Assembly (NCBI GenBank): GCA_040830765.1
Contig: JBFOMH010000005.1
Location: forward strand, 224,001-288,000
DNA length: 64,000 nucleotides
Direction: 5' to 3'
Source: Puniceicoccaceae bacterium
Lineage (GTDB): Bacteria > Verrucomicrobiota > Verrucomicrobiia > Opitutales > Oceanipulchritudinaceae
The notes under the pieces were generated by a model. That model saw nothing but the letters and a program-made list of their open reading frames with translations. It did no database searches and was not told where the DNA came from. This document shows positions 8,456 to 50,744 of the stretch, piece after piece; the first letter of the stretch is position 1, and every line of letters begins with the position of its first letter. A program made the translations under genes and the position numbers.

Positions 8456-10300
8456 TCACTCTGCAATTTCCTTTCTGAGGCGGACCGGAAAGAGCCATTC
8501 GAGGAATATCATGGCGAATTGGGAGAACCAGAACACCAGAAGCCAGAAAAAGGCACTATCCATGAATCCGTAGGAGTGCAGACCGACGCCGAGCATATTT
8601 GTTCCAAACCACGACCAGGCCGTGATGACATTCCCGATGATGGAGAGATTGACCAGCCCACGGGTCTTGATGAGACCGCCCCGCAGGGCATGGAGGATCA
8701 TGGCCGTCCAGAGGACAATCATGAGGGCCCCGTTTTCCTTCGGATCCCAGCCCCAGAAGCGTCCCCATGACTGGTCAGCCCAGATGCCGCCAAGGACTGT
8801 CCCGACAAAGCTGAAGAGCAGGGAAAAACAAACAGCGCCATAGATCATCCGGTGGAAGGACTGCTGCATCTCCTTGGGCATTCCACTCCGGGTACGGAAC
8901 CAGCCGTTCAAAGTGTAAATAATGCCCAGGAAGCCGGCCAGGAATGTGGCTCCATAGCCCATCGTAATCGTGATCACGTGGGTACTGAGCCAGAAGTTGG
9001 AATTCAGGACGGCCCGCATCTTCTCCATCGTGTCGCCGGTATCGGAAAGATGGTGCGCGACCAGCAGGGTCAGGAAACCAACTGTTGCCGCGGCTAGTGA
9101 CCCGACACCCTTGCGTTGGAAGTGCTCAAAGATGAGGCTCAGCAGAACCGCTACCCAGCCGACAAAAACAGCTGAGGAATAGAGGTTTGTCACCGGTGCA
9201 TAGCCGGTAATGATCACCCGCAGGACCAGTCCGGCGGTGTGAATGACAAAGCCAATCCACAAGATCCGGTAGGCATTGGCGAGGAACACCTTGGGCGTAA
9301 AGAGCCAGCCGAGGAAAACCAGCAGGGTCACAAGGACATAAAGAGCCAAAGCGACGATAAAGGGTTGGCTCTGGTTGAAATAGAACTCCATCACCGGATG
9401 CTCGCCGGTTTTGGCAACCGCGGGAGCGAAAGCCGCCAGCTCTGCGGCAGCTTCGGCAAAGGCCTCGGCATCCCCACCCTGCCTGGCCTGGGCCAGCTTG
9501 CCAAGGGTGACCATTTGCTCGGGAAGGCCACCGGTCATCGGAATGCCCTCGACCATGACGTCGCCGGGTTTCTTCCACTCCCCATTGTAGTTGAGCAGGA
9601 AGATGGTAGTCCGGGACATTTCGCTAAGCTGCTGCATGTGCATGCGCAGCATCGGGGAATCGAGGTTCTGGGGCGTTGACTGGCCCGAAGCGGCAAACTG
9701 GTTGGCCGCCTCCATGACACTGTTGACGACTCCGTTGTAGAAGCTCGGTACACTCTGTCGCAAACGCAGCGGATACACCGTCTGGGCAACCATCTGGTAG
9801 AGGGCCAGATTGCCATAGAGCTGGTTGATCGCCGTCTCGTAGGAATTGCGTTGCTTGCTGTCGGGATTTATCTGCCGGGCCTGCTCCTGGACCTTCATCA
9901 GGTAAGGCTCCAGATCCGCATAGCTGAAGTACTTCTTTGTCCCGGCTTCAAGGCCGAACATGCCCAGGATATCCGGGTGATCGATGCGGAAAACCGGTAT
10001 CTTGTCTGCTTCCTGACGATCGAAGAGCACCTCCGTCAACCAGTCGATGGCTTCCACCTTGCGACGCTCGGTGGTCCCGTCTTCCAGTTCGGCCTTGTAC
10101 TTGATGGATTGCTTGCCGCGGATAAGCAGAAGGGTGTGCCGGGCAACGGCATCCAAGGGCTTGACGCGTCCTCCTTCAAGTACCGGCATTTGACCGAGGA
10201 CCGCCTCGGCGGAGGTGTCCGGCTTGACCAGGGGTTGGGCCACCGGCCAGATGCAGAGCAGCGCCAGTAACCAGATAATGCTAATACCTGCCCATTTCAT
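8456..10300 (-). CDS. ccsA: Cytochrome c biogenesis protein CcsA/ResC (system II) with periplasmic extension
   Basis: WWD motif WADQSWGRFWGWDPKEN and GLHSYG. Start ATG 10300 overlaps the upstream stop (TAATG). Confidence 0.9.
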   Translation of the reverse strand: MKWAGISIIWLLALLCIWPVAQPLVKPDTSAEAVLGQMPVLEGGRVKPLDAVARHTLLLIRGKQSIKYKAELEDGTTERRKVEAIDWLTEVLFDRQEADKIPVFRIDHPDILGMFGLEAGTKKYFSYADLEPYLMKVQEQARQINPDSKQRNSYETAINQLYGNLALYQMVAQTVYPLRLRQSVPSFYNGVVNSVMEAANQFAASGQSTPQNLDSPMLRMHMQQLSEMSRTTIFLLNYNGEWKKPGDVMVEGIPMTGGLPEQMVTLGKLAQARQGGDAEAFAEAAAELAAFAPAVAKTGEHPVMEFYFNQSQPFIVALALYVLVTLLVFLGWLFTPKVFLANAYRILWIGFVIHTAGLVLRVIITGYAPVTNLYSSAVFVGWVAVLLSLIFEHFQRKGVGSLAAATVGFLTLLVAHHLSDTGDTMEKMRAVLNSNFWLSTHVITITMGYGATFLAGFLGIIYTLNGWFRTRSGMPKEMQQSFHRMIYGAVCFSLLFSFVGTVLGGIWADQSWGRFWGWDPKENGALMIVLWTAMILHALRGGLIKTRGLVNLSIIGNVITAWSWFGTNMLGVGLHSYGFMDSAFFWLLVFWFSQFAMIFLEWLFPVRLRKEIAE

Positions 10301-11511
10301 TATTTGATCCTCCGGGTCATGCGGTATCCCGCAACAGTGAACTGCCAACACAGGCCGATGGAGACGAGGATGCAGGCGATGTAAGGCACCAGCCATCCGG
10401 GATTCTTGACCACCTGGAACATGGATGCCGTATCCTGCTTGGCAAAGGAGGCCTGGTAATAGGTGCGTCCTTCGTAACGCAACGGATTGTTCATGAATAT
10501 CATGACTTCCTTTTCGTCCCCGTTCACAGCGTGCTCCACCCGTACCCGACTGGAGAAGTTGCTGGGAATATTCGTTCCGGGATAGCGGTCATGGTTGAAT
10601 TCAAGCAAGGTGATGGTGTAGGGAAGATAGGTCTTCTTGAAGCGGAGTCCGATCTGGTAGACCTGTCCGTCCACTGTGAATTCCTGCTCCGGGAAACGCT
10701 CCTCAAAAACGTTCGAGACCAGCCAGGATCCGACAACGTCACCCGCACTGAGGACATCCACGACTGCCGTGCGAATGTCCCGGCGCTCATCACTGTTGAA
10801 GGAGCCAATCGCCTTCACGCCAAGATTGAACTGGGCCCCGATGCCGCGTGTGACACCAAAGGTTTCCCGGCCCATGGCCGCCCCACCCTGGTTGATCTCG
10901 GCGTTATTGAAGACCTCCCGCACTCTCAGCTGAAGGGGAAAGAGTCCCGGTTGACCGGGAACTTCCGGTTCCAGCATCATTCCCTTTTTAAGATCCTTGA
11001 AATCGTAGGAAAAGACTCCGAGGCGACCGTCTTCCTTCTGCTTGGTCAGGTAGAACTCGTCCTCATGGAAACTGCGGATGAAATTGGCCTTACCGCCTTC
11101 ATCAAGCCACATGTAGTCTTCCTCCTGGAAGATATTGGTCACCAGCTGGCCAACCAGCAGCATGAGGATGCCGACATGGATAAAGCTGATCCCCATAATG
11201 GACCAGCGGGGCCGCCAGTAGCGCGCATGGGCAAGGACCAGATTCAGGGCCAGCAGGGGGCCAATGAGGTAGCCACCGGGGAGAACCACCGGAATGAACT
11301 TCAGGAAATTGCCTGCAGGCCAGAATTCCGGATAGCGCCAGATGGCGATAAAGCTTTCGAAGTAGATATCCTGGGCCTGGCGAATGCCGATCCGGACTTG
11401 GTCGAGCGTGCCGAAAAAGACCAGCAGGACAGAGAAACCGAGCAGGAAAACTGATAACCTGAGGGATCCCAACTCCTTCAAAAGCCGCTTCAAAAACGGG
11501 AGTATATGCAT
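10300..11511 (-). CDS. Cytochrome c biogenesis protein ResB/CcsB-like
   Basis: N-terminal SLRLSV..TM, conserved His in IHVGILMLLVG, C-terminal MNNPLRYEGRTYYQASF..NPG. Translationally coupled to ccsA. Confidence 0.8.
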   Translation of the reverse strand: MHILPFLKRLLKELGSLRLSVFLLGFSVLLVFFGTLDQVRIGIRQAQDIYFESFIAIWRYPEFWPAGNFLKFIPVVLPGGYLIGPLLALNLVLAHARYWRPRWSIMGISFIHVGILMLLVGQLVTNIFQEEDYMWLDEGGKANFIRSFHEDEFYLTKQKEDGRLGVFSYDFKDLKKGMMLEPEVPGQPGLFPLQLRVREVFNNAEINQGGAAMGRETFGVTRGIGAQFNLGVKAIGSFNSDERRDIRTAVVDVLSAGDVVGSWLVSNVFEERFPEQEFTVDGQVYQIGLRFKKTYLPYTITLLEFNHDRYPGTNIPSNFSSRVRVEHAVNGDEKEVMIFMNNPLRYEGRTYYQASFAKQDTASMFQVVKNPGWLVPYIACILVSIGLCWQFTVAGYRMTRRIK

Positions 11512-30834: not shown

Positions 30835-30927
30835 GGAGAGATGGCTGAGTGGCCGAAAGCGCCCGCCTGCTAAGTGGGTATACGGCTTAAAACCGTATCG
30901 AGGGTTCGAATCCCTCTCTCTCCGCCA
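30835..30927 (+). tRNA. tRNA-Ser(GCT)
   Basis: Acceptor GGAGAGA/TCTCTCC-G-CCA, anticodon arm CCCGC-CT-GCT-AA-GTGGG, long variable arm, GGTTCGAATCC. Confidence 0.97.
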
Positions 30928-33994: not shown

Positions 33995-34849
33995 ATGAGC
34001 CGACTGCTACCCTTCCTCATGGTTACCCTGTTCCTGGCCAGTAGTACTTTTGCCACTATCCCCATCTTCAGCCCCACAACTGAATGGAATCCGATTACCT
34101 ATCCGGGTGTCACTTCAGACTACCCCTCCGACACCCAGGCCAGCTCACTTGACCTCGACCTCGTCGGGGATGTAACACACGCAGCGTTCTACACCCGCTT
34201 TGATGCCACCCCCTCGCCCCAAGCACCGGAAGGTGAAGTGGGCTATCGACTGCGCATGGCTGGCAACCAATCACCGGCGACCTTTGCCGGCCAGGCATGG
34301 ATTGGGGCGGATGTTAATAGCGATGGTGCCCTGGATCTTTTTGTGGGAGCCAATAATAACACCGTCAGCATCAACTTCGCCGGTGCGGACTCCAATACCT
34401 CCCCCAATACAACCTCGATCGACTCCACGCCTTTCTGGTCAGCCAGTGTCTCGGCGACAAATTTCAGCTGGACAGAAAACAACAGCAGTCTGGATCCCGA
34501 TGGTACCAACTTTGACATCGATAATGGCGGGGAAACGGACTACTTTCTCACTTTCATCGTCCCCTTCGACCAACTTGCGGCAGCTGTGAACTCCCTTTCC
34601 CTGGGATTCACTTTCGACAATACGTCCCCCTTAGCCTACATTGCCGCCACCGCCACCCAGGGACAAACCCTGAATGCGGACTTGAATGGCGTCAATGGCA
34701 CGGCCGGCACCCTTTCCTGGACTGAACTGGATGCCATCAGCCCGGAGGTCGGGATAGATGGCGAACCCGCAGTTCCGGAGCCCGGACTGACAGCCCTGAT
34801 CGTGGCGCTGGCGGGAGGATTCTTTTTGTTCGTGCAGAAGCGCCGCTGA
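33995..34849 (+). CDS. PEP-CTERM sorting domain protein
   Basis: Signal peptide, Ser/Thr/Asp/Asn-rich body, VPEP + TM helix + KRR terminus. Confidence 0.9.
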   Translation: MSRLLPFLMVTLFLASSTFATIPIFSPTTEWNPITYPGVTSDYPSDTQASSLDLDLVGDVTHAAFYTRFDATPSPQAPEGEVGYRLRMAGNQSPATFAGQAWIGADVNSDGALDLFVGANNNTVSINFAGADSNTSPNTTSIDSTPFWSASVSATNFSWTENNSSLDPDGTNFDIDNGGETDYFLTFIVPFDQLAAAVNSLSLGFTFDNTSPLAYIAATATQGQTLNADLNGVNGTAGTLSWTELDAISPEVGIDGEPAVPEPGLTALIVALAGGFFLFVQKRR

Positions 34850-39920: not shown

Positions 39921-40211
39921 ATGAACGACAAAAGCCCCATAGTCTACATTAAGCCGGGTTGTCCATGGTGCCGTGAAGCACTGGCTTTCTTTTCCGAACA
40001 TGGCGTTCCTCTGGAAATCCGTGATGTTAACTCCGAGCCCCAGAGCATGCAACGCATGGTCGAAATCAGCGGCCAGTCCAAGACACCTACCTTCGAGTTT
40101 GGGGAATTTATTGTCGCCGACTTTGACGTCCAGGAGTTCCTCGACGCCCTTGAGCAGGTTCCCGAAATCAAACAGCAACTTGGTTTCGGCGATAGCGAGG
40201 ACTGGAACTAA
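39921..40211 (+). CDS. Glutaredoxin-family protein
   Basis: CPWC active site and SGQSKTPT. Confidence 0.88.
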
Positions 40212-41599
40212 AACTCCGCATTGCCCGGAGTTCGGGCAAAGGGGATGACGTCCCGGATGTTGGCCACACCCGTGACAAACATCAGCATTCGCTCAAATCC
40301 AAGCCCGAAGCCGGAGTGCGGGGCCGTGCCATAGCGTCGCAAATCCCGGTACCACCAATACTCCTCCTTCGACAAGTCGTGGTGCTCGAGTGCGGCATCC
40401 AGGCGCTCCAGACGCTCCTCACGCTGACTGCCCCCGATTATTTCACCTATTCCCGGAACCAGCACGTCCATGGCGGCAACGGTCTTGTCATCATCATTCT
40501 GGCGCATGTAGAAGGGCTTGATCTCCTTCGGGTAATTGAAAACGGTGACCGGGCGCTGAAAGTGGGTTTCCGTCAGCCAGCGCTCATGCTCACTCTGGAG
40601 ATTGGCCCCATATTCCACCGGGTAGTCGAATTTGACATCCGCTGTTTTCAGCAACTCTACCGCATCGGTATAACTGATGCGCTCAAAGGGCCGTTCCAGC
40701 ACGAACCGCAGGCGTTCATGAAGGCCCTTGTCGACGAATTTGCCGAACATCTCCAGGTCCTCCTGACAATGCTCAAGGATATCCCCGATGAGGTACTTGA
40801 TGAAATCCTCCGCCAAGCCCATGTCGCCTTGCAAATCGCAAAAGGCCATTTCCGGCTCAATCATCCAGAACTCGCTGGCATGACGGGAAGTGTTGGAATT
40901 TTCCGCCCGAAAAGTGGGGCCGAAGGTATAGACATTGCTGTGCGATAAGGCGAATATCTCCGCCTCCAGCTGGCCACTGACCGTCAAGTAGGTTGGCCGG
41001 CCGAAGAAATCCTTTTCATAATCAATGTTCCCGTCCTCGTCCCGTGGCGGATTGCCCGGTTCCAAGGTGGAAACGCGGAACATTTCACCGGCCCCTTCAC
41101 AGTCGCTCGCCGTGATCAACGGCGTGTGCACATAAACGAATCCACGTTCCTGAAAGAACTGGTGCACCGCATAGGAGAGCCGTGAACGAACCCGGAATAC
41201 CGCCCCAAACAGGTTTGCCCGAGGCCGTAGGTGCGCGATCTCACGCATGTACTCCAGCGAGTGACGCTTCTTCTGCAGGGGATAACTCTCCTCCGCCTGT
41301 CCGATCAGCTCCAGCTCAGTGGCCTTGATCTCCCAGCGTTGGCCCTTCCCCTGGCTCTCCACAAGCTCCCCGGCCATCCGCACAGCTGAACCAGTCGTGA
41401 AGGCGTGGATGTTATCATACCCGGGACACCCTTCATCGGCAATTACCTGCAAATTCGCCAGGGAACTGCCGTCGTTTAATTCAATAAAGGAAAAGCCCTT
41501 CGAATCCCGCCGGGTCCGTACCCAGCCATACACTTCTACCGCATCGATCGGTCCGTCGGATTCCAGGGCTTCTTTTACTCTCAGTCTTTGCAAGCTCAT
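40208..41599 (-). CDS. asnS: Asparagine--tRNA ligase
   Basis: [43 protein letters not shown]. Confidence 0.97.
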
Positions 41600-41640: not shown

Positions 41641-41684
41641 CAAAAAAACAAAAAGGCCCTGCTCCCCAAAGGGAACAGGACCTT
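41641..41684 (-). terminator. Intrinsic terminator closing the large ncRNA candidate
   Basis: Minus strand AAGGTCCTGTTCCC-TTTG-GGGAGCAGGGCCTT then TTTGTTTTTTTG. Confidence 0.9.
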
Positions 41685-42553
41685 AAAATGTGGGACGGCG
41701 CTCGCCACACGCTCTTTCCCGGTTGCTGACATTTGGCGCTCGTGATTCTTCATCATGGCTGCCAGCTCCCCGACGCTATTCTCCGAGGCACTTCGGAGTC
41801 CCGGCCTCGTAGCAGGGCCGTAGATGGAATTACTCCCATCTAATTCAAGAGTGAGGCCTCTCAGCATGGTCACCCCACAGGTGCTACCTGCGGACCTTCC
41901 TTACCCGCCGAGGATATCGCTGTAATCCGGTATCCTCCGCGATTCTTCCCAAGGTCGGCTCCACTGTCTCCAGCGGACGTTTGCCTTGAGTTACGGGTCT
42001 GACCTCTTACCTCTCGGGGATGCGTTCAGTTTACAGGCAGTCGACTCGGTTTTTCGAGCCCACTGCTTCTCGAAGGAAACCTGCGGCTGTTGTCATGTAC
42101 TCGGCCGCCTGTTTCCCCGCTTACCAAGACGTTTTCGCTGCACCGACGTTTTTCCGGTCGCTTATGGTGAGATTAGCCCTCACCCGCCTCGCCAAACGGA
42201 CGAACTGCACGGTAACATCCCTTGACCTTCCAGGTCACCGCGTTGAAGTCTCCCAGGGCACAACCCCTTCGGATCCTTCTAACTCAACCTGCTGGCATTG
42301 TGCTTGGCCTCGCTCTCGCTCGGCCGCCAGCCGATCGCCGGTCGTGTGCTTTCACAATTCAGGGCTGTGTGACCAACCCTGGCACCGACGGTGAAATTTG
42401 CCTCACTTCCTGGAGCCTTTAGTGGACGTCTCCTCAGAGCCGCCCGACTCCCCTCCATGAGGAGCCAGATTCGTTCGATAAACCTGACTGTTCCCCGGTT
42501 ACCCGGGATTATCCTGGGGCTTTCGAGTTGAATGCCCGTTCTTTCAAAGAACT
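41641..42553 (-). ncRNA. Large (~910 nt) structured noncoding RNA candidate, MISL-like or novel
   Basis: No credible ORF, bounded by promoter and terminator. More than 15 hairpins by eye, several with GNRA loops and G-U pairs on the minus strand. Confidence 0.75.
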
Positions 42554-42559
42554 GACCAT

Positions 42560-42589
42560 ATTGTGCTCTTCAGGGGTCCCGACTGTCAA
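42560..42589 (-). promoter_or_regulatory. Sigma70-type promoter of the ncRNA candidate
   Basis: TTGACA (42589-84), 18 nt, then CACAAT (42565-60). Predicted start near 42553. Confidence 0.7.
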
Positions 42590-42615: not shown

Positions 42616-42741
42616 TGTGAACAATCAAAGGTTATTGACACTCGCTTTTTACAACCTGTTCGTAAGTCCCTCATTTGGATGGCGATACACACCGGAGCCA
42701 ATGTGAATAACTTCGCTTTTTCTGTGAGTTAGTGTGAACAA
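42616..42741. promoter_or_regulatory. Cluster of DnaA-box-like 9-mers in AT-rich spacer
   Basis: TGTGAATAA at 42702 (fits TTWTNCACA), TGTGAACAA at 42616 and 42733, TTATTGACA at 42632 (one mismatch each). Confidence 0.55.
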
Positions 42742-42828: not shown

Positions 42829-43824
42829 TCAGGGATTGGCCTCGAGGTCCTGATCGAGAGCCTCCCGGATGGCATTGACCTCAATGGCAATGGCCTGAAC
42901 GAGCTGTATTTGCTCATAGAAAGAGGCTTCCTGTTCCGGATTCTGAAAGAGGACCCGCTGTTCACGGGGATTGTAGGACCAAGTTCCCCAGGCCTCACGG
43001 AGGACGTTGAGGGCGGCAATGGCGGAGCCAAGCAGGCGAACCTCGAGCTGCCGCAGGTCATAGACGCGGGATCGCTCCCAGAATTGGAGCACGCGTTCCA
43101 TTTCGGCAATGGCGATACGGTCGGCCGGGGGTTGCAGGTCCAGAGACTCGATTGAGCGCGTATAAGTATCCTCGAAGGACTCGATGAACTGGGTGAAGGC
43201 CCGGGTCTGTTCATAGAGCACCCTGTGGGCAGCCAATTCGACTTCCAGTTGGTCGATGGTCCGAAACCGAATCCACGATTCGGGGCCTTTGGTGGGATTG
43301 GCCTCCATGGCGGCGGCATAGGCTTCGGACTGGGCATCCAAGGCCTCGCGCATTTGCTGGTCCAGCTGCCGCAGGGCATCCAAGGTATCATACGGGATTC
43401 TGCCCTCATACTGGACAAAACGGTCCGTCTGGCCCCGCTGCTCCCGCTCGGCCCTCTCGGCGGCCCTTCGTTCCTCCTCGGCCTTGGCGAGGCGAAGCCG
43501 TTGCAATCTCAACTGTTCACGGGAGTCCTGTATGGCCTCCTGCCGGGCGCTATCCCGGTCGGCCTGGTTCTCGCGGGCAAGTATCAATGGAAAGATTAGA
43601 AGACAGCCCGCCAATCCGACAATCGCCCAAGAGATGAGGACCGGATCCCGGGCAAAAAGCCAGCGGGCGATCAGATTCAGGCAAATCCCCGTGGCGGTAA
43701 TCGCCACTGGCCAGACCAGATGAAAGAGAGTCCCCTGCAGCCATGGGACATCGGGATACCATCCGGTCAGCAGGTAGTATCCCAGCCCCATCAAGACGCA
43801 AACAATTGCCAGAATTAGCCTCAT
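42829..43824 (-). CDS. Hypothetical membrane protein with coiled coil
   Basis: Three N-terminal hydrophobic helices, E/R/Q-rich helical remainder. ATGA overlap with tatD stop. Confidence 0.75.
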   Translation of the reverse strand: MRLILAIVCVLMGLGYYLLTGWYPDVPWLQGTLFHLVWPVAITATGICLNLIARWLFARDPVLISWAIVGLAGCLLIFPLILARENQADRDSARQEAIQDSREQLRLQRLRLAKAEEERRAAERAEREQRGQTDRFVQYEGRIPYDTLDALRQLDQQMREALDAQSEAYAAAMEANPTKGPESWIRFRTIDQLEVELAAHRVLYEQTRAFTQFIESFEDTYTRSIESLDLQPPADRIAIAEMERVLQFWERSRVYDLRQLEVRLLGSAIAALNVLREAWGTWSYNPREQRVLFQNPEQEASFYEQIQLVQAIAIEVNAIREALDQDLEANP

Positions 43825-44627
43825 GCCGGTTCCAAGCCGTAGAACTGAAGGGCGTTCCGTGTCGTGATTCGAGCCAAATCCTCCATGCTGATGCCGAACA
43901 GTTCGGCTGCAAAACGGCCGATGTGGGCCACGTTGGCGGGCTCATTCGGCTGGCCCCTCATTGGTTCCGGGGTCAGGTAAGGCGAATCCGTTTCCAGCAT
44001 GAGTCTTTCCAGTCCCTGTTCCAGGGCAGCTTGGCGAATGGGCTCCGCGGAGGCATTCTTATAGGTCAGGATACCGGTGAAGGAAGCCCGTCCACCGCGG
44101 CTGTTGATTTCGCGGACCAGTTCGGGCCCGTCAGTAAAGCAGTGAAAGACAACCCGCTGCCAATCCACTCCGCTCTGGTCAATCAGGCGGATGCATTCCT
44201 TGACGGCATTGCGCGAATGAATGACCACCGGACAGTCCAATTGGTAGGCAAGCGTCAACTGGTCCTTAAAAACACGTTCCTGCAGGGCCTTCAGCTCGGC
44301 AGCTTCATCGGGATACTTGGGCATGTGAAAGTGGTCCAGTCCAATTTCGCCAAGGGCGACTGGTTGAGGGTCGGTCCCGAAATAGGTCGGGATGGCCTTT
44401 ATCTGCTCTCCCCAGTCGTCATCAATGTCGCAGGGATGAATACCAACCGTCCAGTCGACCCGGCCGCTCTCGCGAGCCGTGAGACGATAATAAGTTTCCC
44501 AGTCCTTCTGGCTCGTTCCCACGGTAATGCAGCGGTGGACTCCAGCGGCCTGCATCCGCTCCAGCACAGCTTCCCCTTCTCCCCGGGTAAGTGCCTTTTC
44601 CAAGTGACAATGGGTATCGATCAGCAT
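43821..44627 (-). CDS. tatD: TatD-family nuclease
   Basis: IDTHCHL, GIHP, GEIGLD, IHSR, FHCF, ETDSPYL.P. Confidence 0.93.
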   Translation of the reverse strand: MLIDTHCHLEKALTRGEGEAVLERMQAAGVHRCITVGTSQKDWETYYRLTARESGRVDWTVGIHPCDIDDDWGEQIKAIPTYFGTDPQPVALGEIGLDHFHMPKYPDEAAELKALQERVFKDQLTLAYQLDCPVVIHSRNAVKECIRLIDQSGVDWQRVVFHCFTDGPELVREINSRGGRASFTGILTYKNASAEPIRQAALEQGLERLMLETDSPYLTPEPMRGQPNEPANVAHIGRFAAELFGISMEDLARITTRNALQFYGLEPA

Positions 44628-44724
44628 GCCTCTTCAATGAGCCAGAATATGAAGGAACTTCAACTGTTATCCTATTGTTCTTTTTAGTTTGAAAGGAACC
44701 CACTTTTCCCATTCTCATGATTGC

Positions 44725-45606
44725 ATGATTGGTGAACGTCTAGAAGAGGGTCGCAAACGCAAGGGAGTATCCATCCGCGAGGCAGCGGAAGCCACCAAAA
44801 TCCGGGGAGATTATCTTCTGGCAATGGAGGACAACTCCTTCGACATTCCCCTGCCACAAATTTATGTCCGTGGCTTCCTGAAGAACTACGCCCGCTACCT
44901 GAAGCTTGATCCAAACAAGATCCTTACGGATTACGATGCGCACCTCCTTGGCAAATCAACCCGGCCGGCAGGTTCAGGAACCCGCAGTGACCGCGATTCC
45001 CTCGGTCAGGTGGAAATCCCGGAGGAACGCGAGGAAGAAGAGGACCGCGTGGTTATTACCGAAGCACCCGAGGATGAGGGTCCCGATCCGGAGCTTACTT
45101 TCAACCTGGGGCAAAGGGAGCGCCCAGCCCCGCCCCCGCCAACCCTCGACCGGGAAGCAACCCGCCACGACCAGGAGTCATGGAATGAAAACAAGACCCT
45201 GTATATAAAGATCGGGGTTGTTTTTGCGGCCATCCTGCTGGTTTCCATTATCCTGATTGTCATGATCCAACTCCTCACCCGGGAAAAGGATACACCGGCA
45301 ATTAATCCCGAGCTGGCAACAACCCCGGCGGAAACCGTCCAGACCCAGCCCGAGGTTGTCACGGGAGGGATTACCCGCGACAGCATCCTGATCACCGCTT
45401 CCGACAACCTCACCGTAATCGTCGAGCAAACCGTGGACCGGAAGCGCCTGTTCAGTGGCTCACTCAATACCGGGGAAACCCTCTCCTTGGAAAAGGAAGG
45501 TCCGGTCTCCATCCGTTTTACCAACGGCTCCGCCCTGACGATTGAGAAGGATGGCCAGAAGTTCCGTCCGCAGCAGACGGGGGTTGGCCGGACAGTGGTC
45601 GACTAG
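44725..45606 (+). CDS. RodZ-like HTH membrane protein
   Basis: IGERLEEGR..ATKIR..YVRGFLKNYARYL, single TM, C-terminal beta domain. Start ATG 44725. Confidence 0.85.
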   Translation: MIGERLEEGRKRKGVSIREAAEATKIRGDYLLAMEDNSFDIPLPQIYVRGFLKNYARYLKLDPNKILTDYDAHLLGKSTRPAGSGTRSDRDSLGQVEIPEEREEEEDRVVITEAPEDEGPDPELTFNLGQRERPAPPPPTLDREATRHDQESWNENKTLYIKIGVVFAAILLVSIILIVMIQLLTREKDTPAINPELATTPAETVQTQPEVVTGGITRDSILITASDNLTVIVEQTVDRKRLFSGSLNTGETLSLEKEGPVSIRFTNGSALTIEKDGQKFRPQQTGVGRTVVD

Positions 45607-45619
45607 GCAAGGATAAGGC

Positions 45620-46288
45620 TCAAGCCTGCTGGTCTTCGGACAGCTTTGCCTGCAGGACCTGTTCCCGGCTGAGATGAATAATGTACTTCTCCTCGAAGTA
45701 CGGGTCCGGGATCTTTTCCCAGAGCGGATAAACCGCGAAGGGCTCAAGGCCCATCTGCTCCAACTCCTCCTTGTAGAGGCTGCCTTTCCAGTAAAGGACC
45801 CCGTTGGGCAGGGATTCTTTGCCTCCCTGTCGGATATTGCCGCGAATCCAGCCGAGGAACCGGGGAAGCGAGGTCACCGCCCGGCCAAGGATGAAGTCCC
45901 AGCGCGACTCGAGCGTTTCCGCCCGCTTGTTCACCACCTGGACATTCGGGATATTCAGGGCCTGCACCATGTCCTCGACTGCCTTGGCCTTCTTCGTAAT
46001 CGAGTCACAGAGAAAAAATTCCGCCTCCGGAAAGCAGATGGCCAGTGGCATTCCGGGCAATCCCCCACCTGTCCCGACGTCGAGGACCCGGGCTCCAGCC
46101 GGAATTTGGACCCAATTGACCAAGGCCAGCGAATGCACCAGGTGATGGAGGGCAAACTGGTCCATGTCCTTCCGGGAAACCAGGTTGATGCGGCTGTTCC
46201 ATTCCTTGAAGACCGTTTCCAGCTTGCCCATCTGGTCCAGCTTGGCGGGACCAAGGTCAGGAAAAAAGGATTCCAGAAGGTTTGCCAT
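45620..46288 (-). CDS. rsmG: 16S rRNA m7G527 methyltransferase
   Basis: WNSRINLVSR, HLVHSL, LDVGTGGGLPG, RAE, RAV. Start 46288 or 46297. Confidence 0.93.
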   Translation of the reverse strand: MANLLESFFPDLGPAKLDQMGKLETVFKEWNSRINLVSRKDMDQFALHHLVHSLALVNWVQIPAGARVLDVGTGGGLPGMPLAICFPEAEFFLCDSITKKAKAVEDMVQALNIPNVQVVNKRAETLESRWDFILGRAVTSLPRFLGWIRGNIRQGGKESLPNGVLYWKGSLYKEELEQMGLEPFAVYPLWEKIPDPYFEEKYIIHLSREQVLQAKLSEDQQA

Positions 46289-46296
46289 GCCCTGCA

Positions 46297-47229
46297 CTAG
46301 GCCTGTTCAGCGAGCCAGCGCTCCGCCTCGATGGCTGACTGGCAGCCCATGCCAGCGGCCGTGATGGCCTGCCGGTAAACATGGTCGGCACAGTCACCTG
46401 CGACGAATACGCCCGGGACCCGGGTCTTCACCTGGCTCCCCGGCTGCGGGATAAAGTAACCGTTGTGGTCGGTTTCGATTTCCTGGGCGAAGGGACCGGT
46501 ATTGGGAATATGACCAATGGCAATAAAGAAGCCCTTGGCCTCCAGTTCGCTCTCCTGCCCGGTCTTGACGTCCTTGATCCGGGCCGCCCGCATCGTGCCG
46601 TCGTCACCAGCGATGACTTCCATCGGCACGGTATTCCAATGGACCTCAATCTTTTCGTGGGCCTTGACCCGGTCAGCCATGATCGAGGAGGCCCGCAGCT
46701 CGTCACGGCGGTGCAGCAGATGGATGCGGCTGCAAAAATGCGTCAGGAACAAGGCCTCTTCACAAGCGCTGTCGCCACCCCCGACGACAATCACTTCCAT
46801 ATCGCGGTAAAAAGCGCCATCACAGGTGGCACAGGTGGTGACCCCCTTGCCGCCGAACATCTCCTTCTCGCCGGGAATATCCAACAGGCGCGGGCTGGCG
46901 CCTGTGGCAATAATGACGGACTTGGCTTCAAATTCCTTTCCGTCCTCTGCCGTCAGGACCTTCTTGTCGCCCCCAAAATGCACCGACTGGATACGGGCGT
47001 ACTCCGTTCGCGCCCCGAAGCGTTCCGCCTGCTTGCGCAGCTTGTCCATCAGAGTGAAGCCATCGATGCCCTCCGGCCATCCGGGGAAATTTTCCACTTC
47101 GCTGGTTGTTGTCAGTTGTCCGCCCGGCTGGGTCCCTTCAAGGACCAGGGGACTTAAATTCGCACGCGCTGCATAAATGGCCGCGGTCAGGCCGGCGCAG
47201 CCGGTTCCAAGTATGATTACATCTTCCAT
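46297..47229 (-). CDS. trxB: Thioredoxin reductase
   Basis: [43 protein letters not shown]. Confidence 0.96.
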
Positions 47230-47241
47230 AATTGAATTTCT

Positions 47242-48753
47242 CTACGGGTCAGAGGATTTATCCGGTACTTTAATCCGGACATAAACATCAAAATAACCAA
47301 ATCGCTCCTTTTTGTAGGTTTGTTGGAGGTATTCGAATAGAAGTTCCTTGTACTCCCCTTCAGTCGGACCGATGCCAACTGCCTCCACTCCGGAACTTTC
47401 CATGGAGCGAATGAATCCGGAGATTCCTCCCGGCCACTGCGCCATGATCTTGCGGTCGATGCCAGCAATGATGAAGCCGTACGGGTTGACATTGCTGCGA
47501 TTGGACAAGACCAGCAATTCCGGAAGGCCGATGGACGCGATTTGCGTTTCCCCGGGGAAGCGCTCAGCCACTTGCTCGGCCGAAACACGCTGAGCCTTCA
47601 AACCGTCCTCGGAAGTGCCATGATAGAGCATCACTGAGGAAAGCGCCAGAAGGGCCGCCACGGTCGCACCGACCCGTTTGGGCGTCAGGCCGGCCAAGCC
47701 CTGAAGGGAACAAACGCCCTCCGAGAGTTTCCAGAAGAGCCCGGCCATCCCAATGGCCATGTAAGGAAGAAATGGATACAAGTCTGCCGCTCCCTGAAAA
47801 TCGAGAAAAGTCCACAGGAAAACGAACGGCAGGGTCCCGACAATTGGCAACCAAACCGGCCATTCCTGTACACGGTGGACAGGATGGCGGTAAATCACCG
47901 CTGACTGAAGAAGCAGGTAAAACAAGCCCATGATTGCCGGTACAGCCATCAGGGTGTAGCCCTTGAAAAGCGACTCCACCGGCGCTAGCAGGTGTTCAAT
48001 GACATCAAATGGCGGACGGTCCAGGTAAGTCAGGTTGAAGACGACACTGCCATCGATCAGGGCCACCAGGGCGCCTTTGGATATAAAGTAACCGAACAGA
48101 ACCAGGCAGGGGACGAATACGCCAATGGCCGCGTAGCCGAGTCCTCGAAACCGCAATTCCCGGTCCTCCTTATGGATAAGTAACGGCGCCAGCAGGGCAA
48201 AGAGGACATAAACCACCCCAGGTTGCCAGACCCAGGTCGCCAGGGCTGCGAAAAACCCGGCCCATCCCCAGCGTTGCCGGGCAGCGAAGTAAAGGAATGC
48301 CACCTCAAAGAGGACGAAGGGCGTCTTGGCCCGCGGCCCGGACACGGCTTCCCGGCCAAAACTCCAGAAGCCCGTAAAGGCCATCGCGCCAATCAGCCCA
48401 GCAAGCGCATTGCGATAAAGGAGACGACCCAGAAGGTAAATGAATCCGCCTGCCAGTCCGCTCATGACCCACCATCCGGCGCGCACCGCGAGGACATCCT
48501 CAAGTCCGGAGAACCGCCCCATGGAAACAAAGAGACCACTCAGGATGGGCGTCAGTGGTGTCTTGTGATCAAAAATGGATAGGTAAGGGGCAACCCCATC
48601 GGCAAACTGCTGGCCGGCATAGAGGTATATGGCATCATCCCGGTAGAGCCAGCCCTCAAATCCGTAGACAGCGTAAATCCCGAGACTGATTGCCGTCGCC
48701 AGTAAAAACCCGAATACGGGCGAGCCGGTGATGCGCTGTCCCGATTCCCCCAT
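47242..48753 (-). CDS. GT-C-type polytopic glycosyltransferase (DolP-mannose mannosyltransferase-like)
   Basis: RDDAIYLY.GQ and PY..IFDHKTPL in first loop, many TM helices. Confidence 0.65.
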   Translation of the reverse strand: MGESGQRITGSPVFGFLLATAISLGIYAVYGFEGWLYRDDAIYLYAGQQFADGVAPYLSIFDHKTPLTPILSGLFVSMGRFSGLEDVLAVRAGWWVMSGLAGGFIYLLGRLLYRNALAGLIGAMAFTGFWSFGREAVSGPRAKTPFVLFEVAFLYFAARQRWGWAGFFAALATWVWQPGVVYVLFALLAPLLIHKEDRELRFRGLGYAAIGVFVPCLVLFGYFISKGALVALIDGSVVFNLTYLDRPPFDVIEHLLAPVESLFKGYTLMAVPAIMGLFYLLLQSAVIYRHPVHRVQEWPVWLPIVGTLPFVFLWTFLDFQGAADLYPFLPYMAIGMAGLFWKLSEGVCSLQGLAGLTPKRVGATVAALLALSSVMLYHGTSEDGLKAQRVSAEQVAERFPGETQIASIGLPELLVLSNRSNVNPYGFIIAGIDRKIMAQWPGGISGFIRSMESSGVEAVGIGPTEGEYKELLFEYLQQTYKKERFGYFDVYVRIKVPDKSSDP

Positions 48754-48757
48754 GACC

Positions 48758-49303
48758 CTAGTAGAGGAATGCGGTAACCAGGAGGGCGAGGGCCATCATC
48801 ACGAAGACTCCGCCAAAGGCCCGGACACGGACTGTCGAGACATAGAGCCAATTCAGGAAATCCCGCATCTTGTATGGCATCACCCCAATAAATATGGAGA
48901 GGGTGACAAAGAGGTAAATGAGGGTTACCAGGACCAGCCGCTCCGGGATATCATACAGTCCAAAGGCCGACTTCAGACCGACGTTCCCGCTTAGGAGCAC
49001 GAGGACTGCCAGGCCCCTGACAGCCAGGAAATCACGGACGTAGAAAATGGTCCCCAGGAGGGTTGCCGCAAAGAGGGCAAAGAGAATCTCCTTGTAGTCG
49101 CCAAAGTCGGACTGTCCGAGCATCCAGATTTTCCAGAGGAACCAACCTCCCCCGAGAAGCATGAGGCCAACGCCCGCCGCGCGGTTGCGCGGGAAGGCCA
49201 GGACGCGTTCCCGGATCTTATCCGGAAGCGCCAGAAAGGGGATGCCCGCGACCAGCAGGACAAGGGCCATCAGGATAGTGAAAGTATAAAGAGAGGGAAT
49301 CAT
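48758..49303 (-). CDS. Hypothetical polytopic membrane protein
   Basis: About six hydrophobic segments, start ATG 49303, in operon after miaB. Confidence 0.75.
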   Translation of the reverse strand: MIPSLYTFTILMALVLLVAGIPFLALPDKIRERVLAFPRNRAAGVGLMLLGGGWFLWKIWMLGQSDFGDYKEILFALFAATLLGTIFYVRDFLAVRGLAVLVLLSGNVGLKSAFGLYDIPERLVLVTLIYLFVTLSIFIGVMPYKMRDFLNWLYVSTVRVRAFGGVFVMMALALLVTAFLY

Positions 49304-49313
49304 TTGATTAGAA

Positions 49314-50702
49314 TTACTGAGCAAGCAGTGCCGGACCGTTTTCGTCAACCCCGCTGAGACAGAGTTCGCCCAGAAGAATGCTGACCGTGGCATCAGTTAC
49401 CCGGACCGGGACCACCTGGCCCACGAGTCGTTCGGTGGCCGGAAAGATCAACTTGCGATTGCCCGGATTGCGCCCCATGAACATGCCCTCCCCTTTTCGG
49501 GCCGGCCCCTCGACAAGGACTGACTGGACAGATCCCAGCAAGCCCTGGTTACGCCGCAGAGAGCTTTCCCCCAGCACCTCGAGGAGGATCTTGTTGCGCT
49601 GGTCCTTGACCTCAGCGGAAATATCATCGCCCATCTCGGCGGCCTTGGTCCCGGCACGCTCGGAATACTTGAAGATGAAGGCCATATCAAAGCCAACCTC
49701 CTCAAAGAGCGACCGGGTCGCTTCAAATTCATCCTCTGTCTCACCCGGGAATCCGACGATGATATCGGTTGAGAGGCAGATATCCGGCTGTACCTCCCGC
49801 AGCTGGTCGACAATTTCCAGAAACCGGCGGCGCGTGTAGGGCCGGCGCATGCGCTTTAACATGGAGTCCGCCCCGCTTTGCAGCGGCAAATGGACATAGG
49901 GCATTAACTTCTCCAGCCGTCCGTAGGCCTCGACAAGGTCCTTTTGGAAGCCGCGCGGGTGCGGTGAGGTAAAGCGGATCCGCTCCAGGCCGTCGATGGC
50001 ATTGACCCGCTCCAGCAACTGGACAAAGGGACTGATGCCGTTGCGGTACGGAATTTCCCGCATGCCATAGCTGTTGACGATTTGCCCCAACAGGGTGACT
50101 TCGCGCGTGCCTGCCGCCACCAGCTCCTCGATTTCCTCGCAGATGGAGTCCATGCTGCGGTAGCGCTCCGCACCGCGGGTCTTGGGCACAATACAGAAGG
50201 TGCAATGCATGTTACAGCCCTGCATGATGCTGACAAAGGCCGATACCTGCGCCTTTTCACTGATGTGTTCCCGGATCGTCTCCTCCGAACCACTCTCCTC
50301 ATCGAGATCGACGAGGGTGGCCGGGCGCGGGCCCAGCCCATTGTGGCTGGCGATGAACTGGTCAAGCATCTGCGGTACCCGGTGAAACTTCTGGGTTCCC
50401 ACCAGCAAATCCAGATCCGGAAGCTTCTCCAGCAAGTCCGTTCCCCGGTTTTGTACCATGCAGCCCATCAGCCCGAGGACAAAGTTCGGATCCTCCTTCT
50501 TTCGCTTGGCGAGATGACCGGTCTTGCCAATGGCCTTCTGCTCCGCCTGTTCCCGGACAGCGCAGGTGTTCAGGAGGACAATATCCGCGGTGTGCTCATC
50601 GCAGACGATGGTGTAGCCCCGATCCCGCAGCTGGGCTGATACAGCCTCCGAGTCACGCTCGTTCATCTGGCAACCATAGGTCTTGATGTAGACGCGGTTC
50701 AT
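49314..50702 (-). CDS. miaB: tRNA methylthiotransferase MiaB
   Basis: TYGCQMNERDS, LNTCAVRE.AE, radical-SAM GCNMHCTFC, RFTSPHP, TRAM domain. Confidence 0.96.
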   Translation of the reverse strand: MNRVYIKTYGCQMNERDSEAVSAQLRDRGYTIVCDEHTADIVLLNTCAVREQAEQKAIGKTGHLAKRKKEDPNFVLGLMGCMVQNRGTDLLEKLPDLDLLVGTQKFHRVPQMLDQFIASHNGLGPRPATLVDLDEESGSEETIREHISEKAQVSAFVSIMQGCNMHCTFCIVPKTRGAERYRSMDSICEEIEELVAAGTREVTLLGQIVNSYGMREIPYRNGISPFVQLLERVNAIDGLERIRFTSPHPRGFQKDLVEAYGRLEKLMPYVHLPLQSGADSMLKRMRRPYTRRRFLEIVDQLREVQPDICLSTDIIVGFPGETEDEFEATRSLFEEVGFDMAFIFKYSERAGTKAAEMGDDISAEVKDQRNKILLEVLGESSLRRNQGLLGSVQSVLVEGPARKGEGMFMGRNPGNRKLIFPATERLVGQVVPVRVTDATVSILLGELCLSGVDENGPALLAQ

Positions 50703-50744
50703 AAGCGGATCATGTTCACTTGCTCCAGCAAAGGGGGTCAAGCC

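Follow-up and report, generated by a model that had tools for sequence, protein, structure and literature searches.

The stretch of DNA analysed here, referred to as the window, comprises 64,000 nucleotides, and the gap that it contains between an asnS-type class II tRNA synthetase gene (40208..41599, minus strand; PF00152, PF01336) and the tatD operon is almost certainly, judging from its sequence, a gene for the MISL RNA. When the whole window was searched with cmscan, positions 42514-41697 of the minus strand matched the Rfam family MISL (RF03079) over the full length of the model (positions 1-751 of 751), with a score of 338.4 bits against a cut-off of 274.6 and an E-value of 1.8e-100. The matching core (41697..42514) spans 818 nt and occurs in a single copy in the source genome. 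Only two matches in the window lie above the gathering score, this one and a tRNA; in the MISL region itself, a search to E 10 for other Rfam families returned chance-level matches of 14-22 bits alone. An earlier sequence-only reading had proposed either a MISL relative or a new class of giant RNA: the former stands with the full-length match, and the latter falls by the criterion which that reading had set for itself, a strong Rfam match. On this match the locus is a new example of a catalogued family, not a new RNA class.

The upstream neighbours, both on the minus strand, are a gene for a 331-aa protein with no Pfam hit (42829-43824) and tatD (43821-44627). The former overlaps the tatD stop, and its product shows hydrophobic N-terminal stretches and a charged helical region. 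A housekeeping cluster follows at 44689-50741, composed of rodZ-like, rsmG (gidB), thioredoxin reductase-like and miaB-like genes and two genes for proteins without a Pfam hit. Elsewhere in the window, a plus-strand tRNA with a long variable arm (30835-30924) has the anticodon GCU (Ser) according to the alignment. A 284-aa protein with no Pfam hit (33995-34849, plus strand) ends in VPEP, a hydrophobic stretch and basic residues, a tail which we take to resemble a PEP-CTERM sorting signal.

The distribution of MISL was assessed by model and by pattern. With the covariance model, matches were found in 17 of 31 genomes of relatives (14 above the cut-off) and in 9 of 151 genomes across the phylum; a 21-mer found the RNA in 60 of 301 genomes of the order (14 of 27 in family f1 and 18 of 30 in f15) and 32 of 401 of the phylum, and a pattern scan of species genomes gave at least 119 stretches. 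Among the titled matches listed, 79 of 80 belong to Verrucomicrobiota and one is titled "uncultured bacterium"; the Verrucomicrobiota matches listed are for the most part Opitutaceae, together with Limisphaerales and Pedosphaera. With that one exception, the titled matches listed fall within Verrucomicrobiota, the range reported for MISL. In each of the families f3, f14 and f65, MISL was found in 0 of 30 genomes with one 21-mer at one mismatch and limited candidate scoring, so that these zeros mean "not found in those searched"; likewise, one exact pattern gave no match among viral contigs, which is weak evidence of absence. Two copies in family f59 are eroded and shortened (L175:101-733, 114.5 bits; L179:1046-1729, 199.2 bits). 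Both retain the 5' hairpin described below, and L179 retains DnaA-like boxes as well. Irregular copies are also linked to family f54, four genomes of which (G208, G247, G262 and G274) give two matches each to the MISL 3' motif: a locus titled Candidatus Moanabacter (L055:2216-2576) has the 3' half of MISL alone, without a recognisable 5' hairpin, and a divergent MISL of 239 bits (L184:810-1731) is also without one. Weinberg et al. (2017) reportedly presented the family in their supplement, with its function unknown. The main text of PMC5737381 has no mention of MISL, and PMC10925082, on the Ribonanza work, names the RNA as an example of chemical mapping. No study of the structure or function of MISL came up in our literature search, though one may exist in subscription papers or in the 2017 supplement.

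For comparison, 150 homologous loci were collected, 140 of them with the 3' motif, and the 82 unique copies with a 5' element (at no more than three mismatches) and sufficient upstream room were kept. The gene in the window is bounded by a sigma70-like promoter, TTGACA-18-CACAAT (42560..42589, minus strand; 10 of 12 consensus matches), and an intrinsic terminator (41645..41684, minus strand) with a stem of 14 pairs at 41684-41653 followed by a U tail, in agreement with the promoter and strong terminator that the sequence-only reading had placed around the gap. The predicted primary transcript of ~0.9 kb (41645..42553, minus strand), whose start near 42553 is set from the -10 hexamer and whose end from the terminator, likewise bears out its estimate of ~910 nt; the Rfam model covers only 818 nt of this. 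All 23 motifs checked from that reading, hairpin arms and promoter included, lie on the minus strand at or near where it had put them. In the homologues, TTGAC occurs at the same promoter place in 17 of 82 copies and looser -35 variants in 38 of 82, and a terminator-like hairpin with a U run follows the RNA in 80 of the 81 copies with enough flank, as against 23 of 300 control windows. The leader preceding the Rfam start measures 39-84 nt in most homologues and ~300 nt in L167; in the window, a variable leader hairpin read from the sequence (42517..42537, minus strand) separates the 5' hairpin from the first position of the Rfam match.

The claim that the gap contains no credible protein also held. 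Six short ORFs in or overlapping it were tested, none with a Pfam hit, and when four of them were compared with the 82 homologues by tblastn, the three on the plus strand matched only nine loci, all of the same genus. In all seven non-identical homologues, stops or split frames interrupt the 124-aa ORF, and several of them, though not all, break the other two as well. A protein-coding reading was rejected on the lack of Pfam hits and on the state of the short ORFs in homologues, where they are either broken or not detected. The minus strand folds better than shuffled sequence, a check that the sequence-only reading had itself proposed (z = -5.98, with none of 20 shuffles equally good), and the plus strand of the region gives z = -3.74. 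The genes around MISL vary with family: upstream, a divergent gene that we take to be an hrpB-like helicase in 38 of 82 copies; downstream, a presumed typA-like GTPase (both recognised from their translations) in 33 of 82 and asnS in 8 of 82. No partner gene adjoining MISL is common across families in the 82 copies, within flanks of up to 1.5-2.5 kb. With its own promoter and terminator and its varying neighbours, MISL behaves as an independent gene (Rfam type Gene; sRNA), and the stand-alone, structured minus-strand RNA gene proposed from the sequence is upheld by covariation, conserved terminators and RNA-library contigs, the strand of the last being not resolvable.

Outside the Rfam model lies a conserved, boxA-like 5' hairpin, GUUC-UUUGAAA-GAAC (42538..42552, minus strand). 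It matches GTTCYTTGAWAGAAC with no more than one mismatch in 79 of the 82 copies (a set preselected at no more than three), sits at least 39 nt upstream of the model in every retained copy, and has a stem that is 98% paired yet almost invariant. Its loop, UGAAA (42546-42542), has a partner in UUUCA at 42392..42396 (minus strand); in general form, a UGANA loop pairs with NNUCA after a conserved AGGCA. The long-range pseudoknot is 96.5% paired in the 40-sequence alignment, and the pair 42543:42395 exceeds the maximum of the tree-based null. At the variable loop position, for which 6 of the 82 copies gave no partner by regular expression, 71 of 76 copies are paired, compared with 42 expected and a maximum of 54 under permutation; the pairs are U-A (40), A-U (16), U-G (9), C-G (3), G-C (2) and G-U (1), and the five mismatches are U-C (4) and A-A (1). 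An out-of-sample test started from 31 loci. Three duplicates and two loci of insufficient length were set aside, as were eight that yielded no 5' element or no partner; L156 and L180, among the loci lost, are not MISL. Of the 18 copies left, none of them used before, 15 form all five pairs and all 18 form at least four. One homologue, L185, has a second compensated position, with UGGAA facing UUCCA. By these compensatory changes, the loop of the first hairpin is paired into the core of the RNA. The hairpin precedes model position 1, and its pairing therefore cannot be in the Rfam model; a construct cut to the Rfam limits would lose this pseudoknot and might misfold.

The resemblance of this hairpin to boxA was followed into relatives, the source genome (G000) having no assembled 16S. 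The 16S leaders of G004, of the same genus, and of G029 carry a boxA-like element identical to the opening 11 nt of the hairpin, GTTCTTTGAAA. In most MISL copies, by contrast, the element differs from the boxA that rRNA operons of the same family use: it reads GTTCCTTG in 63 of 82 copies, whereas in three Opitutaceae-family genomes, in which the two differ, the rRNA leaders and spacers read GCTCTTTGAAA and GTTCTTTGAMAG. The boxA element binds NusB-NusE as single-stranded RNA; in the inferred MISL fold, the corresponding loop is paired. MISL further differs from the rRNA operons in that this loop is base-paired with compensation and the element stands at +1. The view of the element as boxA pure and simple is thereby weakened. 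Its pairing with 42396-42392, with compensatory changes, indicates that it is at least partly structural; it may have been taken over from boxA, or serve as one in addition while the RNA is being transcribed. Upstream of a 16S gene of G029 (L023), four tandem promoter-like repeats were also observed, each followed by a GTTCTTT variant.

Covariation was assessed by a G-test with APC on the 82 sequences (effective number ~30) against six tree-based null alignments, which answers the call of the sequence-only reading for covarying homologues: 13 column pairs lie above the tree-null maximum, and all 13 are canonical. In the alignment of 40 sequences (A1), 85% of the cells of nested helices are paired and 51 of 84 pairs show double changes, so that the consensus helices of MISL do exhibit compensatory change; three of the 17 nested helices, which align badly, are just 35-55% paired there. 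The structure was derived from the same sequences, and shuffle controls for helices are consequently inflated.

Beyond the 5' pseudoknot, five further long-range pairings were found, all on the minus strand. The helix 42477-42473/42205-42201 (42201..42477) is 100% paired in 40 sequences with double changes in four of its five pairs; its best single pair lies under the tree null (E ~8). The helix 42220-42215/42023-42018 (42018..42220) has one pair above the null maximum, and in a register-free test of 71 copies, 62 form at least 6 bp, compared with 37 in permutations; it is only 48.8% paired on A1, where it is mis-registered. The helix between 42036-42032 and the loop 41924-41920 (41920..42036) is 98.5% paired, with double changes in four pairs and E ~1.8 against the tree null. 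A pseudoknot joining the loop 41814-41810 to 41778-41774 (41774..41814) is 100% paired and includes one pair that is CG in 20 sequences and UA in 18 (E ~22). The weakest of the six is a possible kissing loop between 42372-42368 and the 3'-terminal loop 41709-41705 (41705..42372), which is 97% paired; one of its pairs is GC in 23 sequences, AU in 11 and unpaired in six, and the tree null is not beaten. Overall, five of the six long-range helices are 96.5-100% paired, and only two have a pair above the tree null. The RNA is thus modelled as a series of local hairpins tied by long-range loop pairings, six at most; the first hairpin is locked onto the 5' domain by one of them, and the last hairpin may be locked there by another. 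Many motifs are invariant and apparently unpaired, such as UAAGAGG..AGACCCGU, GCGUCGGG and GGGAAAGAG. Compared with the Rfam MISL model, the real gene starts ~39 nt (up to ~300 nt in homologues) before model position 1, and the cmscan structure line shows no pairing for the five helices other than the 5' pseudoknot. Since pseudoknots are left out of covariance models, these five may already be on record in the Rfam consensus or the 2017 supplement.

Upstream of the -35 hexamer are four DnaA-like boxes, at 42741-42733, 42710-42702 and 42624-42616 on the minus strand and at 42632-42640 on the plus strand. This is the sole place in the genome where three TTRTTCAC motifs cluster within 250 bp, and the box 9-mer TTATTCACA also sits at the start of dnaA in all five genomes examined. 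Such boxes occur in 80 of the 82 MISL upstream windows (two or more in 68), compared with 1 of 939 flanking windows and, with a slightly wider pattern, 162 of 15951 genome windows. No cluster of boxes in the genome ranks above that at the MISL locus, and one other ranks equal to it. Copies without boxes are the Limisphaerales-type L034, L040 and L091, and L154. Domain IV of the DnaA protein carries the motif RDHGTV here, close to the canonical RDHTTV, and binding of DnaA at these boxes is presumed from the known consensus. GC skew places the MISL gene on the leading strand.

The locus was rejected as oriC, as the skew stays negative through it on contig C5 and dnaA lies elsewhere, on contig C17 in the source genome and 281-378 kb from MISL in two relatives. 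The second top-ranked cluster (G000:C4:163200-163500) lies ~6 kb from the C4 GC-skew minimum, next to an ORF downstream that presumably encodes ATP synthase subunit a. It is a better candidate for oriC, though far from dnaA, which lies on C17 at a place where the skew does not switch. A second minus-to-plus skew switch on contig C19, near 151300, may stem from an inversion, an island or a mis-join, and an AT-rich intergenic region at G000:C20:10387-10590 contains two perfect DnaA-type boxes and three near matches.

Sequencing runs offered a hint of expression. Of 24 runs listed, 20 contain part of the stretch and 12 are recorded as RNA; four were mapped, and in three of these, metatranscriptome contigs pile up on MISL. 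In X1, the summed contig depth of the two MISL bins is 1.6-1.7 million, against 0-102 in the other 28 bins; in X10 it is 260,000-340,000 against 0-15 in the other 28, and in X2, which is only guessed to be RNA, 8,500-11,200 against 0-29. In X13 the depth on MISL is only 2-4. In X1, flanking genes are also covered, at depths of 3-27, by contigs 285-1169 nt long that show no differences, which indicates that the same strain was present. Contig depth sums other organisms and reflects expression poorly, and runs had been selected because they contain the stretch; the depths, which show presence in RNA libraries and not strand or ends, are thus a hint of very high MISL abundance. Single contigs end at 42514 (X13) and show an adapter at 42538 (X10), and one low-depth X1 contig (40995-41712) crosses the terminator. 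Joints in RNA contigs are likewise confined to single contigs with short sides.

We propose tentatively, and with a little less than even confidence, that MISL is an abundant, stable, trans-acting structural scaffold comparable to ROOL and GOLLD, possibly self-assembling. The RNA is encoded by a chromosomal transcription unit that is present once and has a promoter and terminator of its own. In this proposal, it would act in trans as a protein-independent scaffold; some of the covarying loop pairings would form between MISL molecules and lead to oligomerisation, and DnaA bound upstream of the -35 hexamer would tie synthesis to growth or replication state. Since many lineages are without the gene or have eroding copies, it is presumably useful rather than essential. 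A bolder form, in which chromosomal, DnaA-controlled MISL at near-ribosomal levels self-assembles through kissing loops into an end-closed, RNA-only cage or lattice, appears unlikely; if true, a large RNA particle in Opitutales would be coupled through MISL to growth state or the initiation of replication, in contrast to the ROOL and GOLLD cages, which are associated with phages. Covariation cannot separate intramolecular from intermolecular pairs. Somewhat unlikely is an account in which all the long-range pairs are intramolecular and MISL forms the RNA core of an OLE-like ribonucleoprotein whose lineage-specific partners are encoded elsewhere. Its many invariant, apparently unpaired motifs, vertical chromosomal inheritance and lack of observed phage copies would suit such a particle, against which stand the missing linked partner gene and neighbours that change by family.

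The box cluster could instead be the purpose of the locus, either as a datA/DARS-like titration or reactivation site or as a DnaA-driven transcript feeding back on initiation. The rank of the cluster, the near-constant presence of boxes in front of MISL and the RDHGTV motif of DnaA speak for this idea, which we nevertheless regard as quite improbable: it leaves 850 nt of covarying RNA structure unexplained, the locus is not oriC, and four copies are without boxes. Slightly less credit still is given to MISL as a ribozyme, or as what domestication has left of a self-splicing intron. The size, multiple pseudoknots and invariant core of MISL are compatible with this, and large bacterial RNAs often catalyse reactions, according to PMC5737381; on the other hand, no group I, group II or RNase P match appears at E-values up to 10, MISL interrupts no gene and carries no maturase ORF, and the contig joints are the single, short-sided ones noted above. 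Resemblances to group I P7 and to group II domain V/VI were dropped, having no covariation support, and a stand-in for RNase P RNA or tmRNA was rejected, both being encoded elsewhere in all five genomes and unmatched in the region. Finally, asnS lies on the same strand 46 nt past the terminator, which one X1 contig crosses, and MISL might on that account be a long cis-regulatory (attenuator) leader of asnS. The changing downstream genes, with asnS in so few homologues, and a terminator that is kept regardless of what follows largely refute this reading, and a small-protein gene meets the broken or undetectable ORFs; we consider both extremely improbable.

As a class discovery the finding is unimportant, MISL being already catalogued; its value is as a handle on an orphan family. 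What the sequence analysis adds is the 5' pseudoknot and a gene boundary corrected to include it, together with evidence in favour of a DnaA-type promoter and a hint that the RNA is highly abundant. With the boundary, the list of loop pairings, the promoter and the abundance hint in hand, cryo-EM and knockout tests can be planned.

The scaffold proposal draws on analogy, not homology, with ROOL and GOLLD. Like these RNAs, MISL is large, with many pseudoknots and covarying long-range loop-loop pairs, and it is apparently abundant, dispensable and without a linked protein gene. PMC12286853 reports that the kissing loops of ROOL and GOLLD, first found by covariation, proved in part intermolecular by cryo-EM, and that ROOL, as abundant as 16S rRNA, was non-essential in one strain. 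Unlike them, MISL has no Rfam match to either family in a search to E 10 and no phage or tRNA-array context, with no viral matches by the one pattern used and housekeeping genes as neighbours; ROOL and GOLLD do oligomerise, whereas MISL would do so on the present proposal. OLE is linked to OapA, and MISL differs from it in having no conserved neighbouring partner gene and no match to the Rfam OLE family. The two are alike as large chromosomal RNAs of restricted lineage with many conserved nucleotides, and the invariant nucleotides of MISL would be as much at home in a catalytic core, or in one that binds protein, as in a scaffold.
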